Origin: Thermodesulfobacteriota bacterium | Lineage (GTDB): Bacteria > Desulfobacterota > Desulfobulbia > Desulfobulbales > JBFMBH01 | Reading direction: 5' to 3' | Length of the DNA stretch: 64,000 bases | NCBI GenBank assembly: GCA_040755095.1 | Contig: JBFMBH010000004.1 | Span: 12,968-76,967, forward strand | Shown here: in pieces, positions 10,203 through 61,382 of the stretch | Numbering within the stretch: the first letter of the stretch is position 1 | Layout of the letters: the number at the start of each line of letters is the position of its first letter | Program-made: the position numbers and the translations under genes | Notes under the pieces: model-generated | What the model saw: the letters and a program-made list of their open reading frames with translations, nothing else | The model's database searches: none | What the model was told of the DNA's origin: nothing

Positions 10203-10247
10203 AAAAAAATCCGGAGGCGGCAGGGCCCGGACCCTGCTGCCTCCGGA
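10203..10247 (-). terminator. rho-independent terminator of PEP-CTERM copy 2
   Basis: The minus strand reads TCCGGAGGCAGCAGGG-tccggg-CCCTGCCGCCTCCGGA followed by UUUUUUU. Confidence 0.8.
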
Positions 10248-10272: not shown

Positions 10273-10845
10273 CTAGTTGCGGCGGCCGCGCACAGCAATG
10301 AGCCCAAAAAGGCCGGAGCCCAGGAGCAGCACCGAGGCCGGCACCGGAACCGGGCTGGCATCGTGGATCAGGACGCCGGTGCCGGAGCTCGGCTGACCGA
10401 CAATATCCCAGATCTCATAGAGCTCGACGCCCGGAATCGGCACGACATCATACTGATAATTGGTGACCACCGAGCCGCCGCTCACCATGCCGAACTTGAT
10501 GCCGAACTCCGGGGTGGCCCCCAAAGATACGGTCGTCGAGTTCGGGGTGAAGCCCATGTACCAGGTGCCACCGAGGTTGCTGAAGTTCACGGTCCGGGTC
10601 CTGGCGGTGGGGGTGATCACCCACAAGGCACTGCCAGGATTGCCCCAGTCATAGAAGGCCATCCTGGGGTAGGTCGCGTTCTGGGCAACCAGGTGCAGGG
10701 CGAAGGTGAACACATCGTCCTGGGTGTTGTTGAGGTCGTTGGGCTGCCAGGCGCCACCATAGGTATAGGCACTCGCCGAGCTCGGCCGCGAGGCTGCAGC
10801 CAGCAGCACCAAGGCGATCACCGCCATCCATCGCATCTTCCGCAT
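10273..10845 (-). CDS. PEP-CTERM sorting-domain secreted protein (tandem copy 2)
   Basis: An RBS GAGGAGGAAG precedes the ATG at 10845. The signal peptide is MRKMRWMAVIALVLLAAASRPSSASA. The C-terminus VPVPASVLLLGSGLFGLIAVRGRRN has the PEP-CTERM layout: motif, transmembrane helix, Arg cluster. Confidence 0.85.
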   Translation of the reverse strand: MRKMRWMAVIALVLLAAASRPSSASAYTYGGAWQPNDLNNTQDDVFTFALHLVAQNATYPRMAFYDWGNPGSALWVITPTARTRTVNFSNLGGTWYMGFTPNSTTVSLGATPEFGIKFGMVSGGSVVTNYQYDVVPIPGVELYEIWDIVGQPSSGTGVLIHDASPVPVPASVLLLGSGLFGLIAVRGRRN

Positions 10846-10973
10846 CGTCTTCCTCCTCAGATTATGTTGGACCTTCGTTGCATCGGGTTGGGGTCTGCCC
10901 AGGCAGCCCCTCGACTCCACATTCCGCGCCGATCCCGGGAACCGGCGCTACCTTTCCATTGCCCCCTCCCCGC

Positions 10974-11035: not shown

Positions 11036-11082
11036 AAAAAAAAATCCGGAAGCAGCAGGGCCCGGACCCTCCTGCCTCCGGA
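11036..11082 (-). terminator. rho-independent terminator of PEP-CTERM copy 3
   Basis: The minus strand reads TCCGGAGGCAGGAGGG-tccggg-CCCTGCTGCTTCCGGA followed by a U9 run. Confidence 0.8.
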
Positions 11083-11107: not shown

Positions 11108-11680
11108 CTAGTTGCGGCGGCCGCGCACGGCAATGAGCCCGAAGAGGCCGGAGCCCAGGAGCAGCACCGAGGCCGGCACTGGAACCGGGCTGGCATCGTG
11201 GATCAGGACGCCGGTGCCGGAGCTCGGCTGACCAACAATGTCCCACACCTCATAGGCTTCCACGCCCGGGATCGGCACCACATCGTACTGAAGATTGGTC
11301 ACCACGCCGCCGCCGCTCACCATGCCGAACTTGATGCCAAACTCAGCGGTCGGCCCCAGGGAGACGGTCGTCGAGTTCGGGGTGAAGCCCATGTACCAGG
11401 TGCCACCGATGTTGCTGAAGTTGACTGTCCTGGTCCTGGCGGTAGGGGTGATCACCCACAAGGCACTGCCCGGATTGCCCCAATCGTAGAAGGCCATCCT
11501 GGGGTAGCTCACGTCCTGGGCAACTAGGTGCAGGGCGAAGGTGAACACATCGTCCTGGGTGTTGTTGAGGTCATTGGGCTGCCAGGCGCCGCCGTAGGTA
11601 TAGGCGCTCGCTGGGCACGGCCGCAGGGCTGCAGCAAGCAGCACCAAGGCGATCATCGCCATCCATCGCATCTTTCGCAT
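11108..11680 (-). CDS. PEP-CTERM sorting-domain secreted protein (tandem copy 3)
   Basis: An RBS GAGGAGGAAG precedes the ATG at 11680. The signal peptide is MRKMRWMAMIALVLLAAALRPCPASA, and the C-terminal PEP-CTERM motif is the same as in copy 2. Confidence 0.85.
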   Translation of the reverse strand: MRKMRWMAMIALVLLAAALRPCPASAYTYGGAWQPNDLNNTQDDVFTFALHLVAQDVSYPRMAFYDWGNPGSALWVITPTARTRTVNFSNIGGTWYMGFTPNSTTVSLGPTAEFGIKFGMVSGGGVVTNLQYDVVPIPGVEAYEVWDIVGQPSSGTGVLIHDASPVPVPASVLLLGSGLFGLIAVRGRRN

Positions 11681-11773
11681 CGTCTTCCTCCTCAGATTAT
11701 GCAAGACCTTCGTTTCATCGCGTCCTGCCCGATCCCGGGAACCGGCAGCACTTTCCATCTGCCCATCCCAAGC

Positions 11774-11790
11774 AAGCAGGAAGTGTGCCA
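11774..11790 (-). promoter_or_regulatory. sigma-54-type -24/-12 promoter (TGGCAC-N6-CTGCT) of copy 3
   Basis: The minus strand reads TGGCACACTTCCTGCTT with GG/GC spacing as in the consensus. It lies about 95 nt upstream of the start codon. Confidence 0.65.
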
Positions 11791-11894
11791 CTCATCTGAG
11801 GATCTGACCAGGCTGCCCAGCGCCACTCAGGAGACCAGTCGTGGCATTCCAACCAGCCAACCCTGCCCGATCAGCCCACCACCAATCCGATAAG

Positions 11895-12065: not shown

Positions 12066-12142
12066 TGGTCGGGACGAGAGGATTTGAACCTCCGACTCCC
12101 TGAACCCCATTCAGGTGCGCTACCAGACTGCGCTACGTCCCG
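12066..12142 (-). tRNA. tRNA-Pro (anticodon GGG)
   Basis: The minus strand reads CGGGACGTAGCGCAGTCTGGTAGCGCACCTGAATGGGGTTCAGGGAGTCGGAGGTTCAAATCCTCTCGTCCCGACCA. It folds as a cloverleaf with anticodon loop AUGGGGU and an encoded CCA. Confidence 0.93.
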
Positions 12143-33302: not shown

Positions 33303-36014
33303 TCAGGGCGCGGTGGCGATGGAGTCGATCTCGATGGCGCAGCCGCTGGTGACCGTGGGATCCAGGCGCAGGCTGCGGATCTCCCGGCCGGCCCACTCGC
33401 CATGGGCCGCCGTGTCGATCAGGTAGTCGTGGAACTGGCCGTCGGCGGTGACCGCGAAGTTAATCTTCCTCAGCTCCGACTCGGACAGAGCAGTGCTGTG
33501 GGTCCAGAAGAGCTGGCCGGTGGTGGTGGCCGCCGCGCTGCAGCTGGTTTTCATGCGCACCGCCAGCAGGGGCACCTCGTTGCCGGCAAAGGACATGCCG
33601 CTGCGTCGCAGGTAAGGATCGGTGCCGGTGCTGGAGGTGGCCAGCGCGCCACCCGACACCACCAGGGAGGTCAGGTGGGTGTTCTTCACCCAGCCCTCGG
33701 TGTCACCGGCCGCCTCGAACTGGAAGCTCACCGGGCTCGCCGCGGTGGTGACCGCCACCACGTTGCTGCTGGCGGATTCCCCCTGACCGTTGACCGCCTT
33801 GACCCGGAGCCAGTAGCTGGTGGCCCGGGCAAGCCCGGAGACGGTGCTGGTCACGAAGTTGCTGCCATTGTCCGCTGCCACGACCCAGGTGCTGCCATCG
33901 GTGGACCGCTCGACGACGAAGCCGTCCTCGTCGTCGGCATGGTCTGTCCACCGGAGGTCGACCCGGTTGTGGAAGACAGCGGACGCCACCAGGCCGCTGG
34001 GGGCGGCGGGCGGCGCCGCGGCCGGGGCAGGCGGCGGTACCGTCTGGATGAAATCGATGGCCATGGCGGCGCCGGCCACGTCCGTGGGATCCAGGCGCAG
34101 GCTGCGGATGTCCTTGCCGGCCCACTGGGGATGGCCGGACAGATCCAGGGCGTACAGATGGAACTGGCCGTCGACGATGGGGGTGAAGGCCAGGGCCTTG
34201 GACATCGATTCTGCGGTGTCGCTGGTGGTGGTCCAAAGAACATGGCCGACGCTGCCAGCGGAGACCTTCATCTACGGGGTATTGGGCTCCAGGCCCTGGT
34301 CGACAAAGCTGCTGGAGGTGCCGCCCATAGCGTGGTTGATGGCCGGCGCAGTGCCGATCTGCACCCAGCCGCCGGTGCCGGTGAGGGATCTTTCCACCGT
34401 GAAGCCCTCTTCGTAGTCCAGCCGGCCATGGGGCAGGTGACGCCAGGAGAAGGCGAGCCCATTGACCGAGGTGCTGGACATGGTCAGGGCCGTGGGCGCC
34501 GGCGGCGGCAGCTCGGCCGGCGGCAGCTCGTTGCGCCAATCGATGGGATTGCTGAACCGCCAGGAGATGTGGCAGGCGTTGCTGGAGCAGGTGCCACCGC
34601 CGACCTTGGGCTGATAAACAAAGCTCAATGGCTGCCAGGCCTGGTGGGCGAAGAACTGGGGGGCGGCCACCACGTCCATCCGGCCATTGACATGGATCGA
34701 CCGGTCCCGGATCGAGATGGCGCCGGCAGCTGGATCCTTCTGCACACTGGTGGCATGGCACAGCTCGCAGGTGCAGCCCCGGGAGATGTGAGTCCAGTGG
34801 GCGTCGCCGGCCGGCGGCCGGCCGTGGCAGTTGTTGCAGGTGTCGCTGTCCCCCTGGGGATCGGAAGCGGAGCCATCCCAGGCCAGTGAGCGGCCGGTGA
34901 CCCGGCGGCCGTCCACACTGCTCTTGCCGTCGCTGTGGCAGTAGACGTTGTCACAGGTCAGGGCATCGTCCTTGACCACCGCGGTGCCGTTGGTGGCCTG
35001 TAGTCGTAGCCGGTGACCGCCGGGGACACCGCGGTCTGGCCGTGGAAGATGGTATTTTCTCCAGCGCGGCCGAAGGTGGCAAAGCCGATCTGGATCCTGG
35101 AGTCATCGTAGACCGGGCTGGCCGGCATCCCGCCGCTATGGCAGTTGTCGCAGGCAAAACCGTAGCCGGTGGCCTGGTCGACATGGATCCGGTGGGCGCC
35201 GGCGGACGCCGAGCCGGTGGGCGACGGGATGTCCACCAGGCCGTCCGGGCTGCCCGGGGCGTCGGTTACCGGCGGGTAGCCGTGGCAGGCCAGGCAGCTG
35301 GGCGCAAAGCCGGTGGCGTGGTCATGGCAGTCGGTGCAGGTGCGGCCGCTGAAATGGTCGGCCAGCATGGCGTTGGCCCGCCAGTGGTCGGTGGCGGTGT
35401 GGCAGACCTGGCAGACCCCGTCCGGGCTGGGGTCGGCCGCCGGATCGCCACCATCGTCGGCAAAGCCGTTCGTGCCCTCACGGTCGAAGAGCTTCACCGG
35501 CTTCAGGCTGTGGTCCGCCGGGTTCTCCATCTCCTCCTTGACATACTGGCCGTAGAGGATGGCGAAGGCGTCGCCGCTGGCCACCTGGCCGGCATAGGCC
35601 GGGATGGCGGCGATATTGCCGCTCACTGTGATGGAGGCGGCGTCGGCGGCAAGGATCTCGAAGCTCACCTCCGGGGCCGCCAGGCTGGGCAGAAGGATGA
35701 GACCGCGGCCCGGTCCGGTCTTGTGGCTCCAACGGCCAGGATCCGCCCAGGCGGCCCGTGCGGTAGACATTGGCGTCGTGGCACTCCTGGCAGGAGGCAG
35801 CCGGCAGCACCGTCCGGTCGTGGCGGGCCTCATGGCTTGCGCCGTGACAGGCGGCGCAGTTGGCGGCCTGCACATGGCTGGCCTGGTGACAATCCGTGCA
35901 CTCCACCGCCAGGGCGTAAGCCAGGCCGGGCGCCCCGGCGAGCCATCCCAGAAGACCGCCCTGCACCAGGACCGCCACCACGGACAAGATGCCGCTCCGC
36001 CTTCCCTGTCGCAT
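33303..36014 (-). pseudogene. large secreted multihaem cytochrome c / FN3-domain protein, disrupted by 2 frameshifts and 1 in-frame TAG
   Basis: An RBS GGGGGAAGG precedes the ATG at 36014, and the signal peptide is MRQGRRSGILSVVAVLVQGGLLGWLAGAPGLAYA. Coding sense moves from the frame of ORF 35478..36128 to the frame of 34958..36073 near 35740-35765, then to the frame of 34272..34979 near 34990-35005. A TAG lies at 34272-34274. The gene carries 9 CxxCH and 2 CxxxxCH motifs, two FN3-like domains and a duplicated C-terminal domain. Confidence 0.7.
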
Positions 36015-40067: not shown

Positions 40068-40475
40068 ATGCATCCTTTTCCCAGCACCCACAGCGTCACC
40101 ATCGGCTACATCCTCTGGATCTTCGGCTTCACCGGCTCGCACCGCTTCTACTACGGCAGGCCCATCTCCGGTACGGTCTGGTTTTTTACCTTGGGCCTTC
40201 TGGGCATCGGCTGGCTGGTGGACCTGTTCCTTATTCCCGCCATGGACCGGCAGGCGGACCTGCGCTTTGTGCCCGGGCCCATCGACTACACGGTGGCCTG
40301 GATTCTCCTCACCTTTCTGGGCCTGTTCGGGGCGCACCGGATCTACATCGGCAAATGGCCAAGCGGTATCCTGTATCTTCTCACCTGTGGCCTGTTCGGG
40401 ATCGGGGTCATCTATGACTTCTGGACCCTCAACAGCCAGATCAGCCTCAAGAACAGCCAAGGGAGCCTGCGATGA
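40068..40475 (+). CDS. TM2 domain-containing membrane protein
   Basis: 135 aa with two repeats of the GxHRFYxGxxxxG TM2 pattern (GSHRFYYGRPISG and GAHRIYIGKWPSG) in hydrophobic segments. Confidence 0.8.
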   Translation: MHPFPSTHSVTIGYILWIFGFTGSHRFYYGRPISGTVWFFTLGLLGIGWLVDLFLIPAMDRQADLRFVPGPIDYTVAWILLTFLGLFGAHRIYIGKWPSGILYLLTCGLFGIGVIYDFWTLNSQISLKNSQGSLR

Positions 40476-42503
40476 TGTCAGAGAGCCTGCCGCCGTCCCC
40501 TGAGAAAGCTGTCCATGCCGCCGGCCGCGACCTCATGGACAGCCTGCGCGCCGAGGACATCCTGGCCGCCATGGGCGATCCGGTAAGCATCCAGGATACC
40601 AGCCTGGTCATCCGGTACCAGAACCCCGCCCACCAGGCCCTGGTCGGCGATCACCGGGGAGAGCCCTGCTTTGTCGCGTACGAGGGACAGGATCACCCCT
40701 GCGACCGCTGCCCGCTTCTGGCCGCCTTCCGGGATGGACAAACCCATCTCTGCGAGCGCACAGGCCGCGGGTCCCAGGGCGAGGCCGTCATCGAGATCAC
40801 CGCCTCGCCCCTCCGGGACAGCCAGGGACGCATCGTGGCGGGCATCGAGGTCTGCCGGGACATCACAGTCCGGCGCCGCGAAGAACAGGCCTTGCGCCAG
40901 GCCCACAGCCAGGCGGTCGAGGACCGGCGCCGTCTGGGCGCTGTCCTGGAGCACAGCCCAGACACCGTGGCCATCCTGGATGCCAGCGGCCGGATCGTCT
41001 ACCTCAATGACAGCGGCCGCCGGCTCCTCGGTCTGGACACCGTGGAATCAGGACTGGGACGCCCCTTTGCCGACCTGATCCCGGCCAGTGACCACTCCCT
41101 GTTCACCAACTCCATCCTGCCGATCCTGCACCGCCGTGGTGAGTACCGGGGAGAGCTCCGGATCCAGCATCTGGCCAGCAGCCGGCCAGTGCCGGTGGAG
41201 ATGACCGCTTTCCGGTTGGACGAAGCAGGCTCGGCCGCTCTCAGCATCCGGGAGATCACCGAACGGCTCCGCCAGCAGGTGGCCCTGCAGGAGGCCAGAA
41301 GCAAGGCGGACGCGGCCCTCGCGGCCAAGAGCCAGTTCCTGGCCAACATCAGCCACGAGATCCGAACGCCCTTGAACGGCATCGTTGGCATGCTGGCCAT
41401 CGCCCTGGGCAGCGACCTGCCGGCAGACATCCGCCGCCACCTGGACATGGCCCGGGACTCGGCGGACCGCCTGGTGGGCATCGTGGGCGACGTCCTGGAC
41501 TTCTCCCGGATCGAGGCCCGGCAGCTGCGGCTGGCAGACCAGCCCTTCCAGCTGCGGGCCCTTCTGGAAAGGACGATGCCGATCTTCGCCGTGCAGGCCC
41601 GGGCCAAGGGGCTGGACCTGTCCTGGCAGATCGACAGCGACGTGCCCGACCTGCTGCAGGGGGATGGCGAGCGCCTGCGTCAGATCCTGGTCAACCTCCT
41701 GGCCAACGCCGTCAAGTTCACCAAGACCGGTTCCGTCGCCGTCCGGATCAGCACCGAGATGCTGGACCTCGAGAAGGTGCTCCTGCATGTGACGGTGCAG
41801 GATACCGGTGTCGGCATCCCCCGCAAGGAGCTGGATGGGATCTTCGAGCCTTTCAGCCAGGCGGACGGCTCCCACACCCGGCGCTACGGCGGCGCCGGTC
41901 TGGGCCTCGCCATCGCCTCCCGGCTGGTGGCCCTCATGGAGGGACACATCTGGGTGGAGAGCGTCCCGGCCAAGGGCTCCACCTTCCACTTCACCGCGCT
42001 CTTTCCATATCAGCCCAGCGTACAAGCCGCCCCCCCCCCCCAGCGCCACGCCTGTTGCTCCCCGGGAAGCCGGCGCCAGCCCGCCAGCCGCCACAGCCAC
42101 CGTACCGGCACCGCCCCCCCGGCAGGCCCGCATCCTCTTGGCCGAGGACGACGAGGTCAATCAGGCCCTGGCGGTCACCGTTCTGGAGCAGGCCGGCTGG
42201 CTGGTCACCGCGGTGGCCAACGGCCAGGAGGCGCTGGCCGCCCTGGAGGCCCAGGGCTTCGATCTGGTGCTCATGGATCTGCAGATGCCGGTCATGGACG
42301 GGCTGGCGGCGGTACACCGCCTGCGGCAGCGGGAGAAGGTCGCCGGCGGGCATCTGCCGGTGGTGGCCATGACCGCCCACGCCATGAAGGGGGACCGGGA
42401 GCGCTGCCTGGCCGCCGGCATGGACGACTACCTCGCCAAGCCCATCGGCATCGCCGACCTGGTGGCCATGGTCCGCCGCTACCTGCCGCCGCAGGCCCAG
42501 TAG
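40472..42503 (+). CDS. hybrid sensor histidine kinase/response regulator (2 PAS + HisKA + HATPase + REC), frame broken at a C12 tract
   Basis: The H-box is FLANISHEIRTPLNGIVGM and the G-boxes are GGAGLGLAI. After 42030-42041 the receiver domain (ILLAEDDEVNQ...DLVLMDLQMPVMDG...LAKPI) continues in another frame, that of ORF 41808..42503. Eleven Cs would give a single ~676-aa ORF. The ATG overlaps the TM2 gene stop (ATGA). Confidence 0.8.
42030..42041 (+). repeat. homopolymeric C12 tract
   Basis: Twelve consecutive C residues were counted directly in ...caagccg-CCCCCCCCCCCC-agcgcc. The tract lies in the Pro-rich linker between the kinase core and the receiver domain. Confidence 0.95.
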
Positions 42504-42504
42504 C

Positions 42505-43338
42505 TCAGCGGCCCTCGCCAGTGTCGCCCCGGATGGGCAGCTCGGCCAGGGCCGCCTCGACGCCGGCGCGGACGTCGTCGGCCCGGCGGGAGTCGCTGTT
42601 GAACCAGCGGCCGTCGTCGTACCAGAGGAGCCGGCCGCTGGCGGCCTCCAGCCAGTAGATCTGGACCGCCAGGCCCCGGGGCACCGTGGTGCCGGCGGCA
42701 AAGCCCGGACCGCCCAGCCCGCCGCCGTCCGATGGCCGGTACGGAGGAAACTGGATCTGCCCGCAGGGGGGAAACTCGAAACGGCCGTCGCAGCCCACCA
42801 CCACCGCCGCCACCAGGCTGCCGGCGCCGCCGGCCAGGGAGCGGACCAGATCCGGCGCCACCCCGCGATCGGTCGTGCGCCGGCCCTCGTTCTTCTCGTG
42901 CAGCCGCACCCCGCGGCCGATGGCATCCAGGGCCTGAAGAAGCTGGCCCGCCCCGGCGGCGCGGTGCTCCTCCGCCGCCAGCTCGGCGCCCGCCGCAAGC
43001 CCCGGGTACTCCCGCGGCTCGGCCAGACGCACCGTCCAGCCCCGCTGGCCAAAGCCTGCGGCCAGCACCTCCGCCACCCAGGCCGCCAGGCCTTGGCTGG
43101 CCTCGGCATCCACCAGGGCCTCGCGGCTGAACAGCTCGTTTTCATAGACCGAGGCCAGGGGCCAGAGCACCAGCACCGGCTCGGCGCTGCCGAGGGCTGC
43201 CGCCAGGTCGGGGTGCCGGACGCTATCCGGGCCGCTGGCGCAGCTGGCCAGGGCCAGGGCAGCGGCCACAAGGCTAGTCCTGGCGGCCGTAGGTGTCTTC
43301 CAGGCGGACGATATCGTCTTCGCCCAGGTACGACCCAT
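42505..43338 (-). CDS. lipoprotein, unknown function
   Basis: The lipobox is LVAAALALASC. The body looks like coding sequence (...VLVLWPLASVYENELFS...). The start is uncertain: the ATG at 43338 overlaps the manC 3' end by 65 nt, and an alternative GTG lies near 43264. Confidence 0.6.
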   Translation of the reverse strand: MGRTWAKTISSAWKTPTAARTSLVAAALALASCASGPDSVRHPDLAAALGSAEPVLVLWPLASVYENELFSREALVDAEASQGLAAWVAEVLAAGFGQRGWTVRLAEPREYPGLAAGAELAAEEHRAAGAGQLLQALDAIGRGVRLHEKNEGRRTTDRGVAPDLVRSLAGGAGSLVAAVVVGCDGRFEFPPCGQIQFPPYRPSDGGGLGGPGFAAGTTVPRGLAVQIYWLEAASGRLLWYDDGRWFNSDSRRADDVRAGVEAALAELPIRGDTGEGR

Positions 43339-44680
43339 TTTGCACCTCGATAAGCTCCAGGGGGATCTTGCCCGGGTTCTCCAGCCGGTGGCGCTCGTTG
43401 GCCGGGATGTACGTGGACTGGTTCTCCACCAGAAGGAAGGTGTCGTCTCCCCGGACGATGCGGGCCGTGCCCCGCACCACCACCCAGTGCTCGGAGCGGT
43501 GATGGTGCATCTGCAACGACAGCTTGGCCCCCGGATTGACGGTGATGCGCTTGATCTTGAAGCGGGGCTGCTCCTCCAATAGGGTGTAGCTGCCCCAGGG
43601 CCGGTAGACCGTGCGGTGCAGGCGGTATTCCTCCCGGTTCTTGGCCTTGAGGCGGGGCACGATCTTCTTCACATCCTGGGAGCGGTCCAGGGGCGCCACC
43701 AGCACCGCGTCGCCGGTCTCCACCACCAGGGTGTCCGCAAGGCCCACCGCAGCCACCAGGGCGTGCTCGGCCCGGATCAGGCAATTGTGTGCCCCTTCCA
43801 GCATGACGTCGCCCACCACCACATTGCCGTCTCCATCCTTGGGGGAGACCTCCCAGAGGGCCTGCCAGGAGCCGATATCGCTCCAGCCGAGATCGGCCGG
43901 CACCACCGCCACCTGGTCGGATTTCTCCATGAGGCAGTAGTCGATGGAGTCCGAGGGACAGTCGGTCATGGCCTGGCGGTCCAGATGGAAGAAGGTGCCG
44001 TCGGCCCGGCCGGCCGCCACCGCCATCTCCATCTGGGAGAGGACCTGCGGCGCGTGCCGGGCCAGCTCCTGGCGCAGGGTGGGCAGGGAGAAGGCAAACA
44101 TGCCGCTGTTCCAGAAGTAGGTGCCAGCGGCCAGGTAGGCCTCGGCCGTCGGCCGGTCCGGCTTCTCCACAAAGGAGCGCACCCGGTGTCCCTCGCCGGC
44201 CTCGATATAGCCGTAGCCGGTCTCCGGTGCGGTGGGCCGGATGCCGAAGGTGACCAGGAGCCCCTGCTCGGCCAAGGCGGTTGCCTGGCGCACCGCGTCC
44301 CGGAAGGCCGCCTCATCCCGCAGCAGGTGATCGGCGGGCAGCACCAGGAGGGTGGAGGTCGGGTCCCGGTGAGCCGCTACCCAGTGGGCCGCGGCACAGA
44401 CCGCGGGCCCGGTGTTGCGGCCTACCGGCTCCAGGAGGATGGTCACCCCTTTGTCCAGCGCCAGCTCCTCGATCTGGCGCTGGACCAGAAAGCGGTGCTC
44501 CTGGCCGACGATGACGATGGGCGGTGCCGCCGCCAGGCCGTCCAGGCGCAGGATGGTGGCTTGCAGGAGGGAGCGCTCCTGGGACAGGCTCAAGAGCTGC
44601 TTGGGATAAAGCTCCCGGGACAGGGGCCACAGCCGGGAGCCGGTGCCGCCGGCCAGAATCACGGGCTGAATGACGCTCAT
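43274..44680 (-). CDS. manC: mannose-1-phosphate guanylyltransferase / mannose-6-phosphate isomerase
   Basis: MSVIQPVILAGGTGSRLWPLSR... is the N-terminal nucleotidyltransferase. The C-terminal cupin reads QMHHHRSEHWVVVRGTA. 468 aa. Confidence 0.92.
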   Translation of the reverse strand: MSVIQPVILAGGTGSRLWPLSRELYPKQLLSLSQERSLLQATILRLDGLAAAPPIVIVGQEHRFLVQRQIEELALDKGVTILLEPVGRNTGPAVCAAAHWVAAHRDPTSTLLVLPADHLLRDEAAFRDAVRQATALAEQGLLVTFGIRPTAPETGYGYIEAGEGHRVRSFVEKPDRPTAEAYLAAGTYFWNSGMFAFSLPTLRQELARHAPQVLSQMEMAVAAGRADGTFFHLDRQAMTDCPSDSIDYCLMEKSDQVAVVPADLGWSDIGSWQALWEVSPKDGDGNVVVGDVMLEGAHNCLIRAEHALVAAVGLADTLVVETGDAVLVAPLDRSQDVKKIVPRLKAKNREEYRLHRTVYRPWGSYTLLEEQPRFKIKRITVNPGAKLSLQMHHHRSEHWVVVRGTARIVRGDDTFLLVENQSTYIPANERHRLENPGKIPLELIEVQNGSYLGEDDIVRLEDTYGRQD

Positions 44681-44698
44681 GGGGGGGGCCTCAAATGG

Positions 44699-44727
44699 GG
44701 AGGGGCGACCCGGCGGGTCGCCCCTCC
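44699..44727 (-). terminator. GC-rich hairpin between the mltD-like gene and manC (weak terminator or attenuator)
   Basis: A perfect 13-bp stem GGAGGGGCGACCC-ggc-GGGTCGCCCCTCC. The downstream U-run on the minus strand is poor (CCAUUUGAGG). Confidence 0.4.
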
Positions 44728-52640: not shown

Positions 52641-52793
52641 GGTCGGAAACAGCTTCTCTCTGCCGTTTTTCGACTGAACAAGGAAGGCCATCGGCTCGGG
52701 AGCGCACAAGAGTCAGCATGTTGGTATCGGCTCTGCGGTTCGTCTTTGGCAGTAAGGCCTGGCCGCGGCGGGAATGATTCGGAGGACAACGGC

Positions 52794-53369
52794 ATGGGGG
52801 CAACACGGCTGCTCTTGGTAGACGACGAGGAGATCGTGCTCCGGGCCTTGAGCCGGGATCTGAATGCCGAAGGCTACGAGGTCGCGGCCGTCGGGAGCGG
52901 CCAGGACGCGCTCCTGCGGCTGGGCAAGGACGTCCGGTTCGACGTGGTCATCACGGATCTGGTCATGGAGGGCCTGGACGGCATCCAGGTCCTGCGGGAG
53001 GCCCGGAGGCTGGACCCGGAGGTGGGGGTGATCATCCTCACCGGCCATGGCGCCCTGTCCTCGGCCATCGATGCCCTGCGCCTGGGCGCCGACGACTACC
53101 TGCTCAAGCCCTGCGCCACCGAGGAGCTGCTCTTGCGCATCCGGCGCTGCCAGGAGCGCCAGGAGCTGCGCCGCAAGCTCAAGCTCTACGAGAACATCCT
53201 GCCCATCTGCGCGGTCTGCAAGATGATCCGGGACGATTCCGGCAAGGGTCCTGGCCAGGGGGAGTGGCTGCCGGTGGACGTCTACATCACCCGCAAGACC
53301 GGGGTGCTCATGAGCCACACCTACTGCCCGGAGTGCGGCCGCAAGGCGCTCCAGGAGCTCATCCGCTGA
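52794..53369 (+). CDS. response regulator: REC domain plus C-terminal Cys-pair (CxxC...CPxC) tail
   Basis: LLLVDDEEIVLRAL...FDVVITDLVMEGLDG...LLKP is the receiver domain. The tail is ILPICAVCKMIRDDSG...WLPVDVYI...SHTYCPECGRKAL. Confidence 0.85.
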   Translation: MGATRLLLVDDEEIVLRALSRDLNAEGYEVAAVGSGQDALLRLGKDVRFDVVITDLVMEGLDGIQVLREARRLDPEVGVIILTGHGALSSAIDALRLGADDYLLKPCATEELLLRIRRCQERQELRRKLKLYENILPICAVCKMIRDDSGKGPGQGEWLPVDVYITRKTGVLMSHTYCPECGRKALQELIR

Positions 53370-57963: not shown

Positions 57964-59904
57964 ATGGTCGATGCCCCCTGCCCTGCCGGACCCCTGTCCG
58001 CCCCTGGCCGGCCGATGAGCGCCGGCGATCTGGCCCGGGTGCTGGAGCTGGTGGACCGGGAGCCCTTTGCCATCTTCCTGGACACCGCCCGACCCGGGCC
58101 GGGCGAGCGCTTCTCCTACCTCTACCGCCATCCGGTCCGGCAGCTGCGCCTGGCAGCCGCCGCGGAGCTGCCCGCCTTCCTGGCCGCCTGCCAGGAGGCC
58201 ATGGACCAGGGCCTGATCCTGGCCGGCTATCTGGCCTACGAACTGGGCTATCTCCTGGAGCCGGCCCTGGCCGGACTGCTGCCGGCCTCCGACCTGCCGT
58301 TGGCCGAGCTGGGGGCCTTTGCGCGGCCGGAGGTGTTCGACCATGCCACCGGCCGCTGGCAGCCGGATTCCCCCTGCCCGGCCGGGCCGACCCCGGCGGC
58401 CGGTGAGTATCGGATCACCGGGCTGGCGCCGGATCTCGGCCAGGAGCAGTATACCCGGGCCGTGGCCCGGATCCTGGACCTCATTGCCGCCGGCGACACC
58501 TACCAGGTCAACTACACCCTCAAGTACCGGTTCTCGTGGACCGGCTCCGCCGCCGCCCTCTACCTGGCCCTGCGCCGCAGCCAGCGGGTGGCCTATGCCG
58601 GCTATCTCCGGCTGGGGGCGCGCCGGATCCTTTCTTTGTCGCCAGAGCTCTTCTTCCACGCCGCGGGCGGCCGCTGCACGGTGCGGCCCATGAAGGGCAC
58701 CAGCCGCCGGGGCCGGGATCGGGTCGAGGATGAGGGCCGGCGCGAGGCCCTGGCCGCTGATCCCAAGAACCGGGCCGAGAACGTCATGATCGTCGACCTC
58801 CTGCGCAACGACCTGGGCCGGCTGTGCGTGCCAGGGGGGGTGGCGGTGGCGTCGCTTTTCGATGTCGAGACCTACGAAACCCTCCTGCAGATGACTTCCA
58901 CCATCGAAGGCCAGCTGCGGCCGGAGGTGGGACTGGCCGGGCTTCTTGCCGGCCTCTTCCCCTGCGGCTCGGTGACCGGCGCCCCCAAGATCCGCACCAT
59001 GGCCATCATCCGGGAGCTGGAGGCGGGCCCCCGGGGCGTGTACACCGGGGCCATCGGCCATCTGTCGGCTGCGGGCGGCACCATGAGCGTGCCGATCCGC
59101 ACCGTGGTCCTGGAGGAGGGGAAAGGCGAGATGGGGGTCGGCTCCGGCATCGTGGCGGACTCGGATCCGGAGCGGGAATGGGCGGAATGCCAGCTCAAGG
59201 CCGAGTTCCTGGCCCGGCCCCATCCCGAGTTCGGGCTGGTGGAGACCATGCTCTGGCGGCCAGCCACCGGCTTCTGGCTCCTGGCCGGGCATCTGGAGCG
59301 CCTGGCCGAGTCGGCGGCCTTCTTTGGCTTTCCCTGCGACCGGCCCGCTCTGGAGGCAGCCCTCCAGCAGCAGGTCGAGACGCTCGCCGGCAGCCAGAGC
59401 CAGCGGCTGCGGCTGGTGCTGGCGCCGGACGGCAGCTGGCGGCTCACCGCCATCCCCCTGCCAGCGGGCGCCCGGCCGGCCGGCGAGCCGCCGCTGGTGG
59501 CCCTGGCGGGCCAGCGGGTCGACTCGACCTCCGTCTTCCTCTACCACAAGACCACCTGCCGAAAGCTCCAGGACCAGGAGCTGGCGCGGGGCCGGGAGCG
59601 GGGTCTGTTCGAGGTCATCTTCACCAACGAGCGGGGGGAGGTGACCGAGGGGAGCTTCACCAACCTGTTCATCCGCCGGGACGATCTGTTCCTCACCCCG
59701 CCCGTATCCTCCGGCCTCCTGCCCGGCGTCTTCCGCCGCCACTTCCTGGCCCGACAGGGGGGCAGGGCCCGGACCCAGGTGCTCACCCCAGAGGATCTGA
59801 CAAAGGCCGAGGCAGTGTACGTGGGCAACTCGGTGCGGGGCCTCGTCCCGGTGCGCTACTGCGCGGCCGGCTTGCCCTTGGCACCGGCCCGGGCCTTGGG
59901 GTAA
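57964..59904 (+). CDS. pabB: aminodeoxychorismate synthase component I fused to aminodeoxychorismate lyase (PabB-PabC)
   Basis: The chorismate-binding core carries GDTYQVNYT, PMKGTSRRG, DLLRNDLGR, GSVTGAPKIRTM and YTGAIG. The C-terminal fold-type IV part carries FGLVETMLW... and GLLPGVFR. The start is uncertain (57964, 58015 or an upstream non-ATG). Confidence 0.85.
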   Translation: MVDAPCPAGPLSAPGRPMSAGDLARVLELVDREPFAIFLDTARPGPGERFSYLYRHPVRQLRLAAAAELPAFLAACQEAMDQGLILAGYLAYELGYLLEPALAGLLPASDLPLAELGAFARPEVFDHATGRWQPDSPCPAGPTPAAGEYRITGLAPDLGQEQYTRAVARILDLIAAGDTYQVNYTLKYRFSWTGSAAALYLALRRSQRVAYAGYLRLGARRILSLSPELFFHAAGGRCTVRPMKGTSRRGRDRVEDEGRREALAADPKNRAENVMIVDLLRNDLGRLCVPGGVAVASLFDVETYETLLQMTSTIEGQLRPEVGLAGLLAGLFPCGSVTGAPKIRTMAIIRELEAGPRGVYTGAIGHLSAAGGTMSVPIRTVVLEEGKGEMGVGSGIVADSDPEREWAECQLKAEFLARPHPEFGLVETMLWRPATGFWLLAGHLERLAESAAFFGFPCDRPALEAALQQQVETLAGSQSQRLRLVLAPDGSWRLTAIPLPAGARPAGEPPLVALAGQRVDSTSVFLYHKTTCRKLQDQELARGRERGLFEVIFTNERGEVTEGSFTNLFIRRDDLFLTPPVSSGLLPGVFRRHFLARQGGRARTQVLTPEDLTKAEAVYVGNSVRGLVPVRYCAAGLPLAPARALG

Positions 59905-61292
59905 GGTCCCTGGCTGGGATAGCCCAGGGCCTGCCAGTCCATCCGGCCGTCCTTCTTGTGGCAGTCCGCACACTTCAAGGCCTGCTTGGCCGGTGGCACC
60001 ATGTGGTTGATCCGGTAGAGCATGCTGGTCTCCACGAATTCCACCTCGCCGCCAAAGGCCAGCCCAGCGCCCTTCATCCCCTCCTTCAAGGCCCGTTGCC
60101 AGTCGCCGGTGGCCGCCAGCGAGCCCTCACCCGCCAGCTTGGGGATGGCCAGGTAGCCGTTCTTGACATCCAACGGCTGCCGGGCGGTCAGACGCTTGAA
60201 GGGGAAGATGCGGGCCTCGGGCTCGTCGATGGCGCCCAGGGGCGCGGTGAGCTGCGCCGGCCGGGCAGCGTCGATCTTGTCGCCCACCCGGGTCACGTGG
60301 GCCTTGCGGTTGAACCAGGCATAGACCGGCGCCACGTTCTCTTCCCAGACCAGGGTGCCCTTCTCTTTGTCGTAGAGGGGCCGGCCAGCCGCATCGGTCT
60401 CGGCCTCCTTGGCCTGGCCGGCGGTGGACCAGTCCACCCGGGTGATCGTGGCGGTCCTCCGGGCGAACAAGGGGATGTGACAGGTCTGGCAGGCCACGGC
60501 GCTGGTGTGGCGGTTGAGACGGCCGGAACGGTGGGGGGCCATTTCATGGCAGTCCGGGCAGTCCAGCCGGTTGCCGCCGCCCGGGGAGACGGCCATGGCG
60601 TTGCCTTTGATGTCATGGAGGGAGGCCTTGTGGCAGGTCTGGCAGGTGAAGCCCAGCTCCGAGGACATGTGCACGTCCAGGTCCCGGCTGGGCTCCAGAA
60701 GATCGGCTCCCAGGTCACCATGCTTGGCGTTGTCGAAGCCGCCGGCACCGAAGTGGCAGATGCCGCAGTTGCGGCGGGTGGGCTTGACCACCGAGCGGGC
60801 GACGGCCAAAAGATCCACCGCCGCCTCCCCAGGCTTGCTGCCAGGACCGAAGCCCTCCGGCAGGCCGCCAATGCCCTTGCGGTAGGTGCCGGTGTCGTCG
60901 TGGCAGATCAGGCAGTCGACGGCGGAGGGCTGATCAAAGGCGAAGCGGCCGTCGGTCCAGCCGTAGCTGGGATGGCAGGCGGCGCAGGCGCCCCAGTTGG
61001 AGGGGATGGCCAGACACAGGCTGCTCACCGCCACCTTCTTGCCAAAATCCACCGCCCCCTGCCCCGGCAGGCTTTGCAGCCCGAGCCAGCGCCAGTGGCT
61101 GGTGCGCATCAGCTCGGTGGCCACCGTCTTGTGGCACTCCAGACACTTCTCGGTGACCGCCTTGGGGCTGGTGAAGGGGGTGCTCATGGCCCGGCTGTGC
61201 ACCTCGGCCGCCGCCCAGGCCCTGCCAGGGGCTGCCACCAGAAGGGCCAGACCCAACCCCGTCACCGCCTGCCGCCATCGCTTCGCGTCCAT
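59856..61292 (-). CDS. octahaem c-type cytochrome (tetrathionate-reductase/OTR-family-like)
   Basis: The signal peptide is MDAKRWRQAVTGLGLALLVAAPGRAWA. There are eight CxxCH motifs: CLECH, CAACH, CLICH, CGICH, CQTCH, CPDCH, CQTCH and CADCH. 478 aa. Confidence 0.85.
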   Translation of the reverse strand: MDAKRWRQAVTGLGLALLVAAPGRAWAAAEVHSRAMSTPFTSPKAVTEKCLECHKTVATELMRTSHWRWLGLQSLPGQGAVDFGKKVAVSSLCLAIPSNWGACAACHPSYGWTDGRFAFDQPSAVDCLICHDDTGTYRKGIGGLPEGFGPGSKPGEAAVDLLAVARSVVKPTRRNCGICHFGAGGFDNAKHGDLGADLLEPSRDLDVHMSSELGFTCQTCHKASLHDIKGNAMAVSPGGGNRLDCPDCHEMAPHRSGRLNRHTSAVACQTCHIPLFARRTATITRVDWSTAGQAKEAETDAAGRPLYDKEKGTLVWEENVAPVYAWFNRKAHVTRVGDKIDAARPAQLTAPLGAIDEPEARIFPFKRLTARQPLDVKNGYLAIPKLAGEGSLAATGDWQRALKEGMKGAGLAFGGEVEFVETSMLYRINHMVPPAKQALKCADCHKKDGRMDWQALGYPSQGPYPKARAGAKGKPAAQ

Positions 61293-61382
61293 TCCCGCAT
61301 CCTCCTTGTCGCCACGTCGTCCCGGCGCCGGCCGCCGGCCTCTTCCCTTCTAGCATGGATGGCCCGGTGGGGTCAAAGGGGT

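Follow-up and report, generated by a model that had tools for sequence, protein, structure and literature searches.

We analysed a window of 64,000 nucleotides (64 kb) from contig JBFMBH010000004.1 of a Thermodesulfobacteriota bacterium, in which a run of twelve cytosines (C12, positions 42030-42041) interrupts a gene for a histidine kinase. The locus is one hybrid kinase gene, with the order PAS-PAS-HisKA-HATPase_c-linker-REC, in which the tract has the wrong length (+1/-2). Homopolymer frameshifts in sensor kinases are already known as a kind of event; what is new here is the locus. A first-pass annotation of the same DNA had interpreted the tract as either a sequencing or assembly error or a phase-variation switch. 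Its view that one hybrid gene is split at the kinase-receiver linker by an excess of one base was upheld by our analysis, but the choice between artefact and switch was too narrow, as it omits a real, non-adaptive slippage allele or young pseudogene, which is how the tracts of Cutibacterium (Propionibacterium) acnes behave (PMC4746626). It is this omitted reading that we favour, at about an even chance: a true frameshift allele, produced by slipped-strand mispairing at a hypermutable tract, that leaves the gene off at present but could in principle revert.

Domain organization and reading frames of the kinase gene

The features of the gene, all on the plus strand, were as follows.

40472..42029, +, kinase-frame coding part before the tract, with the start of the linker at its end (Pfam; third-position GC 0.84-0.96)
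40577-40867 and 40946-41266, +, the two PAS domains, PAS_9 and PAS_4 (Pfam)
41324-41518, +, HisKA with H-box His295 (Pfam E = 4e-20, residues 285-349; HEIRTP motif)
41660-41995, +, HATPase_c (Pfam E = 2e-29, residues 397-508; NLLANAVKF, DTGVGI and GGAGLGL as N, G1 and G2 boxes)
42030..42041, +, C12 homopolymer and point of frame change (in the kinase frame gCC CCC CCC CCC Cag, read A-P-P-P-Q)
42042..42131, +, Ala/Pro-rich interdomain linker in the +1 frame (SATPVAPREAGASPPAATATVPAPPPRQAR; from the translation, with the alignment to homologue P0049 passing through; a second run, C7, at 42114-42120)
42132-42476, +, receiver (REC) domain, +1 frame; a short C-terminal stretch and the stop codon TAG (42501-42503) come after it (Pfam Response_reg, 99.8 bits)
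42042..42658, +, kinase-frame continuation, 205 Arg/Gly/Pro-rich codons, non-coding (no Pfam domain; TAG at 42656-42658)

Translation and Pfam agreed with the first-pass annotation that a PAS-PAS-HisKA-HATPase frame starts at 40472 and runs into ...VQAAPPP. The assembled open reading frame (ORF, 40472-42658) encodes 728 amino acids; its domains, PAS_9, PAS_4, HisKA and HATPase_c, end at residue 508, after which the sequence continues as ...VQAAPPP through the tract, and no Pfam domain was found in the ORF beyond residue 508. The tail of 205 codons (728 - 523) is the Arg/Gly/Pro-rich nonsense that had been described as reaching 42658. The GC content at third codon positions was 0.84-0.96 in the kinase frame up to about 41990 and 0.36-0.6 afterwards, whereas in the receiver frame it was 0.86-1.0 from about 42060 to 42480, and by this measure the frame switch lies at 42000-42060. 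Past 42480 the periodicity of third-position GC is that of a convergent minus-strand gene (42505-43269), to which the last 154 nt of the kinase-frame tail are antisense, and the kinase frame stays open there because of the codon phase of that gene. The 728-amino-acid ORF is an artefact of GC-richness.

The authentic receiver, expected in another frame with its stop at 42503, was found in the +1 frame and matched the Response_reg profile over its whole length (1-111/111). When one C was removed from the tract, a protein of 676 amino acids resulted, with Response_reg at residues 554-668 (E = 1.3e-28); when two were added, the protein had 677 amino acids with the receiver in frame. These are the two repairs (C11 or C14) for which a hybrid kinase of about 676 residues had been predicted. 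Changes in tract length thus switch the ORF in frame (C11, C14) or out of frame (C12, with the 205-codon tail), and C10 and C13 are expected to stop at about 42372, as read by eye from the third-frame translation. The catalytic residues of the receiver are complete (Asp559/Asp560, phospho-acceptor Asp602, Thr634 and Lys656), with CheY-like spacing by our own comparison. HisKA, HATPase_c and a complete REC, the features of a hybrid histidine kinase, are all present, and the C12 assembly lacks only the one continuous frame.

The idea that C12 toggles the protein to a receiver-less kinase was overstated. The C12 product is the kinase core followed by 205 out-of-frame residues. Hybrid kinases that lack the receiver are normally unable to feed a phosphorelay, as they cannot pass phosphate on, and the C12 state is best called off rather than a second signalling mode.

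The first PAS domain contains four Cys residues in the pattern C-x10-C-x2-C-x13-C (CFVAYEGQDHPCDRCPLLAAFRDGQTHLC; window positions 40667-40753, kinase residues 66-94), a pattern that hints at a metal- or redox-sensing site.

One ancestral hybrid or two genes

The repaired C11 protein was aligned with its homologue P0049 in a single BLASTP alignment that covered residues 76-667, crossed the junction and showed 42% identity. As a stand-in base rate for a comparison of tract length among orthologues, we collected HATPase-to-REC junctions of distant homologues. All 97 junctions (82 loci) were in one frame, and the homopolymers in their linkers were all 8 or shorter. From this we conclude that the ancestral gene encoded the hybrid in a single frame and that the break goes with the unusual tract.

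These junctions also bear on the possibility that the locus holds two genuine genes, one for an independent kinase and one for a receiver translated on its own. Both parts do have long open frames. However, from the tract to the domain the receiver frame offers no ATG, GTG or TTG, apart from a TTG inside strand beta-1 (RILLAEDD), and no Shine-Dalgarno (SD) sequence, and two start codons further 5', at 41808 and 41835, are within the HATPase coding region, so that initiation there would put about 100 residues of nonsense in front of the receiver. The kinase-frame tail is without coding signal, and each of the homologous junctions is fused in frame. Two genes are therefore hardly to be entertained, and a separate receiver gene was rejected for want of a usable start codon.

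The C12 tract against chance and local usage

The tract is preceded by G and followed by A. It had been reported that no other run of this length occurs in the window, and C12 was indeed the sole homopolymer longer than 8 in the 64 kb. Pooled counts of G and C runs of lengths 4 to 8 were 507, 155, 31, 9 and 4; there were none of lengths 9-11 and one of length 12. When the run-length decay of the window was extrapolated, only about 0.03-0.05 runs of at least 12 were expected. A different result came from dinucleotide-preserving shuffles of the window, whose GC content is 68%: C12 or G12 appeared in 34 of 100 shuffles, and by that test the tract is not significant. Dinucleotide shuffles also gave 12.85 expected overlapping C9/G9 matches, compared with 4 observed, all of them within the C12 tract. 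The two shuffle results together indicate that the real sequence has been purged of long runs.

Codon usage pointed the same way as the run-length decay. Pro-Pro pairs in 37 window genes avoid CCC-CCN (9/78 vs 36% expected, p = 1.3e-6), CCC-CCC pairs were observed 2 times against 10.4 expected, and none of the 11 other Pro-Pro-Pro (PPP) motifs used CCC-CCC. No avoidance was seen in these genes for CCC before any C-initial codon. The tract is an outlier against local sequence habits, by run-length decay and by codon pairs, yet not against base composition alone. By a rough estimate, a few PPP motifs written entirely in CCC would be expected per genome by drift, notably in a tolerant Ala/Pro linker.

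Slippage in the cell or miscount in the assembly

The frameshift that we propose would have arisen as follows. Three consecutive CCC proline codons with a flanking C on both sides make up a poly-C run in the Ala/Pro-rich linker, and for DNA polymerase a run of 11-12 identical bases is inherently prone to slippage. C12, being the in-frame C11 plus one (or C14 minus two), would then be a slipped-strand insertion or deletion in the majority genotype of the sampled population. Translation of C12 would yield the kinase core with 205 junk residues and without the receiver, so that phosphorelay output would be lost and the gene would be off, with spontaneous +1 slippage of tRNA-Pro on CCC-C providing at most about 1% rescue. 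The tract would still be unstable and the lesion reversible by more slippage, and the population would probably be mixed.

Known slippage behaviour is consistent with this mechanism. Slippage rates increase with run length (PMC1891110), and a 7G tract in mycobacteria frameshifts at 3e-8 per generation (PMC10334774). Because a run of 11-12 should be far less stable than the 7G tract, in-frame and out-of-frame cells should coexist whichever length forms the consensus. For a non-essential orphan kinase that carries an 11-mer, the chance that the consensus of a population shows it out of frame is fairly high. The glpK 7C tract of Mycobacterium tuberculosis resembles the present case in that reversible frameshifts occur at a poly-C/G run inside a gene of a GC-rich bacterium that is not a classical phase varier (PMC10334774; bioRxiv 10.1101/717272); in that system, however, the evidence comes from several thousand isolates, from homoplasy statistics and from a slippage rate that was measured, and the gene is metabolic and not a signalling kinase. 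The closest parallel for the outcome is Cutibacterium (Propionibacterium) acnes, also of high GC, where G/C tracts inside ORFs put genes out of frame and disrupt them without active switching, and where the authors themselves raised the worry of sequencing error (PMC4746626). The P. acnes study differs in comparing 90 genomes, among which tract lengths follow clades, a pattern of slow accumulation rather than active switching (PMC4746626). For the present locus, the sequence shows the anatomy, the frame switch, the integrity of both halves and the uniqueness of tract and frameshift in the window. We infer beyond this that the twelfth C exists in the DNA and did not arise in assembly, that the product of the off state has no function, and that any switching follows from the instability of the tract and is not an evolved device. 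Both halves of the gene are complete and undecayed, with full HisKA and HATPase_c and equally strong codon bias before and after the tract.

The other explanation to be weighed at this point is that the true tract is C11 (less likely C14), that the 676-amino-acid kinase is intact, and that the extra C stems from a miscount in reads, polishing or consensus. Several observations fit it. The single run above 8 nt in the window is also where its one frameshift falls. Correcting the tract by one base is enough to recover a complete protein in agreement with its homologues, and the receiver contains no second lesion and has kept its full codon bias. The sequence comes from a metagenome-assembled genome (MAG) contig. 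Many purported pseudogenes have been traced to assembler, platform or coverage (PMC11017572), singleton frameshifts with good homologues have been treated as likely errors (PMC3711429), and calls of homopolymer length needed Sanger validation in the P. acnes tract study (PMC4746626). The locus is like the spurious pseudogenes in such surveys in having a single frameshift at a homopolymer in a well-conserved gene of a draft or MAG assembly (PMC11017572; GeneTack singletons, PMC3711429).

Spurious pseudogenes usually come with companion errors, however, and none was found here. Full-length domain matches were obtained for about 37 window genes, including those for ValRS, ClpB, PheT, ThrRS, DnaX and PBP1, and the frames were intact at G/C runs of 7-8 in coding genes (5415, 7476, 7504, 23317, 26335 and 56926). 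No other frame break was detected in the roughly 37 checked genes or at 44 shorter G/C runs (6-8 nt). Same-strand overlapping ORF pairs were considered as further frameshifts and rejected, since they proved to be ordinary adjacent genes (dnaX/ybaB/recR, DUF362/Fer4 and manC/SLT). The clean genes and clean runs show that the assembly is not generally error-prone at homopolymers and is not of an error-rich long-read type, and the clean 6-8-mers argue against raw long-read data. Short-read assemblies usually count a 12-mer correctly at ordinary coverage, which would also speak against a miscount if the assembly is of that type, whereas some long-read chemistries often miscount one. That the single frameshift coincides with the single very long homopolymer fits replication slippage in vivo and miscounting in vitro alike.

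A number of points weigh against a real slippage allele. The receiver is entirely undecayed; this is expected of an artefact, but equally of a mutation that is very recent or flickering. The contig belongs to a MAG, and a 12-mer is outside the reliable range of some long-read chemistries. Many apparent frameshift pseudogenes are technical (PMC11017572; PMC3711429). In addition, our searches for independent copies of the tract were negative. A word-index search of 5.8 billion proteins for an orthologue of the repaired protein returned none, the best match having 38-49% identity, and when 1.84 billion representatives were searched exhaustively with phmmer, the best match had 49% identity and there was no self match. 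A scan of genome contigs yielded 80 loci, all at paralogue level (identity at most 49%), with no orthologue among them. No match was found in metagenome DNA to a pattern with a variable tract, and the N-terminal sensor region, used as a protein query in the metagenomes, retrieved just relatives of 25-32%. Exact look-ups of the 728-amino-acid ORF, ManC, YbaB, the TM2 protein and the public ValRS in a gene-position index revealed no second assembly of the locus.

The sequence by itself is compatible both with a real slippage allele and with a miscount in the assembly. We put the former at about even, as stated above, and the latter at a possible but somewhat doubtful level.

Possible programmed recoding at the tract

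If C12 is real, the hybrid could in principle still be made by +1 frameshifting of tRNA-Pro on CCC-C within a PPP stall motif, or by slippage of RNA polymerase, and recoding of this kind would set the ratio of kinase-only to hybrid product. The sequence CC[C/U]-[C/U] is documented as slippery in the +1 direction: in E. coli, frameshifting on it amounts to at most about 1% and becomes 8-fold more frequent without m1G37, and with the GGG isoacceptor EF-P is required to keep it down (PMC4519876). The tract is made of repeats of this motif, with three successive CCC-C sites that encode Pro-Pro-Pro; a gene for tRNA-Pro(GGG) is present in the window at 12066-12142, and a +1 shift would restore the receiver frame and give the same product as the C11 protein. 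The known CCC-C events, however, are low-level errors suppressed by m1G37 and EF-P and not expression devices (PMC4519876), and the stimulatory context is absent at the C12 tract. In the 0 frame the tract is followed by CAG, neither a stop nor a rare codon; upstream there is nothing that resembles an SD; the RNA on the 3' side folds less well than its shuffled versions (z = +1.4); and Rfam gave no match at the locus. Slippage of RNA polymerase would require a -1 deletion or a +2 insertion at C12. Across a transcriptome, slippage insertions were found in A/T runs alone and none in G/C runs (PMC5574713); transcriptional slippage sites are A or T runs, typically of 8-9 nt or more, whereas this run is C. 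We regard recoding as very improbable, and programmed frameshifting or transcriptional slippage was rejected as the main explanation because there are no stimulators and G/C runs are not prone to slippage. Its effect would at most be to make the off state leaky.

A possible evolved contingency locus

The most far-reaching explanation is that selection has kept the poly-C tract as a stochastic on/off switch, so that signalling-competent and signalling-blind subpopulations are generated. In its fullest form this would be a selected switch of an orphan hybrid kinase in a free-living, uncultured bacterium of sulfate-reducer type, with an 'off' state that is possibly leaky through an EF-P/m1G37-sensitive +1 bypass. 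Changes in length do toggle the ORF, C12 lies above the threshold of at least 9 used for candidate G/C tracts in Bordetella, of similar GC (PMC1891110), and the tract defies the avoidance of CCC-CCN pairs and long runs in the window.

A sensor-kinase precedent also exists. The C-run frameshift of bvgS in Bordetella pertussis, which had been cited in the first-pass annotation, is real: C6 specifies full-length BvgS and C7 a truncated, non-functional protein (Stibitz et al. 1989, as summarised in PMC1891110). As in the present gene, the poly-C tract lies inside a two-component sensor kinase gene, in a genome of about 67% GC, and a one-base change removes the C-terminal part. In contrast to our locus, which is one consensus sequence, switching, mixed cultures and phenotype were demonstrated for bvgS. 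The tract described here is twice as long (12 vs 6) and belongs to an orphan kinase of an uncultured, free-living member of the Thermodesulfobacteriota.

Other evidence argues against selection. No orthologue with a tract was found in the protein, genome and metagenome searches, and there is no second tract longer than 8 within the 64 kb. The tract lies 77% into the ORF, whereas inactivating tracts are reported to cluster at 5' ends (shown for poly(A)/poly(T)), and runs of poly-C/G tend to be under-represented (PMC2831843). The gene encodes an orphan kinase of the cytoplasm, in an anaerobe that lives free, and is not a surface, restriction-modification or host-interaction gene. A proline-rich linker at 68% GC can yield such a run by drift, and under the dinucleotide null C12 arises in 34% of shuffles. 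Our analysis gave no positive indication of adaptive phase variation. We consider both an evolved contingency locus and its specific form as a selected, possibly leaky switch of this kinase to be unlikely.

Gene neighbourhood and source of the locus

Two genes flank the kinase gene.

40068..40475, +, gene for a TM2-domain membrane protein (Pfam TM2 E = 3.6e-30; exact protein MEW6218233.1)
42505..43269, -, convergent hypothetical gene (254 amino acids, exact protein MEW6218235.1, locus tag AB1634_01720)

The TGA of the TM2 gene (40473-40475) overlaps the ATG of the kinase gene (40472-40474) as ATGA, and because of this overlap the two genes are probably in one operon. An SD-like AAGGGAG is located 7-8 nt 5' of the kinase ATG. 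The small TM2 membrane protein may be a partner of the soluble PAS kinase. The product of the convergent gene has a lipoprotein-like N-terminus (LVAAALALASC), and the stop codons of this gene and of the receiver are 1 nt apart. Next to the kinase gene there is neither an HPt protein nor a cognate regulator, and the nearest stand-alone receiver protein is 10 kb away. The kinase is predicted to be a cytoplasmic orphan. The stand-alone receiver-domain protein is encoded at 52641-53369 (+), about 10 kb downstream of the kinase, in a 52-54 kb patch of GC 0.61 that is the least GC-rich part of the window.

The surroundings are ordinary chromosome, with genes for ClpB, PheT, ThrRS, IF3, ffs-dnaX-ybaB-recR, tRNAs, ManC, ValRS, PBP1 and multihaem cytochromes. 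At NCBI, ValRS, ManC and YbaB correspond to MEW6218240.1, MEW6218236.1 and MEW6218215.1 (identical, or 100% over the aligned length); these and the two flanking proteins given above are labelled 'MAG: ... [Thermodesulfobacteriota bacterium]' and are encoded on a contig of 81,139 bp. The second-best match of ValRS was just 67% identical, which indicates a lineage without a close sequenced relative. Multihaem c-type cytochromes are encoded at 34272-35102 (-) and 59856-61349 (-), a protein with a Geobacter-type CxxxxCH...CxxCH motif and a Cytochrome_cB/MtrC-like protein, and these genes fit a metal- or sulfur-respiring member of the Thermodesulfobacteriota.

No kinase-frame or receiver-frame protein from the locus was found in the searchable protein collections, where five candidate products were looked up exactly and two homology searches and an exhaustive one were run. 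The accessions MEW6218233.1 and MEW6218235.1 flank one free slot, MEW6218234.1, at the kinase locus, to which we gave no weight as evidence. Papers retrieved with the locus-tag prefix AB1634 were all unrelated.

Some shorter runs elsewhere in the window were also recorded. A G8 at 44681-44688 (+) is a C8 on the coding strand of manC (43274-44680, minus; mannose-1-phosphate guanylyltransferase), where it forms the entire spacer from an SD-like GAGG to the ATG, so that a change in its length would shift the SD-start spacing. Just upstream of this C8 is a perfect 12-bp hairpin (GGAGGGGCGACC...GGTCGCCCCTCC, about 44699-44727). An A7 at 10203-10209 and an A9 at 11036-11044 lie in like contexts (...CAAAAAAA(AA)TCCGGA(G/A)GC...), downstream of the minus-strand ORFs 10273-10947 and 11108-11791 (225 and 228 amino acids), of which the one tested had no Pfam match. 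These two runs may be the T-tracts of terminators.

Implications

Whichever explanation holds, little changes in practice: the appropriate annotation is a single gene for a hybrid kinase with a homopolymer frameshift, and not a 728-amino-acid kinase or separate kinase and receiver genes. If the extra C is an artefact, the case illustrates that the longest homopolymers in MAGs make false pseudogenes and split domain architectures in databases. If C12 is real, it would be a small, clean case in which a signalling gene of an environmental lineage has been inactivated by a hypermutable tract, and a candidate for asking whether switching of the contingency type occurs outside pathogens. Should a selected switch prove true, it would represent phase-variable signal transduction outside host-associated pathogens.

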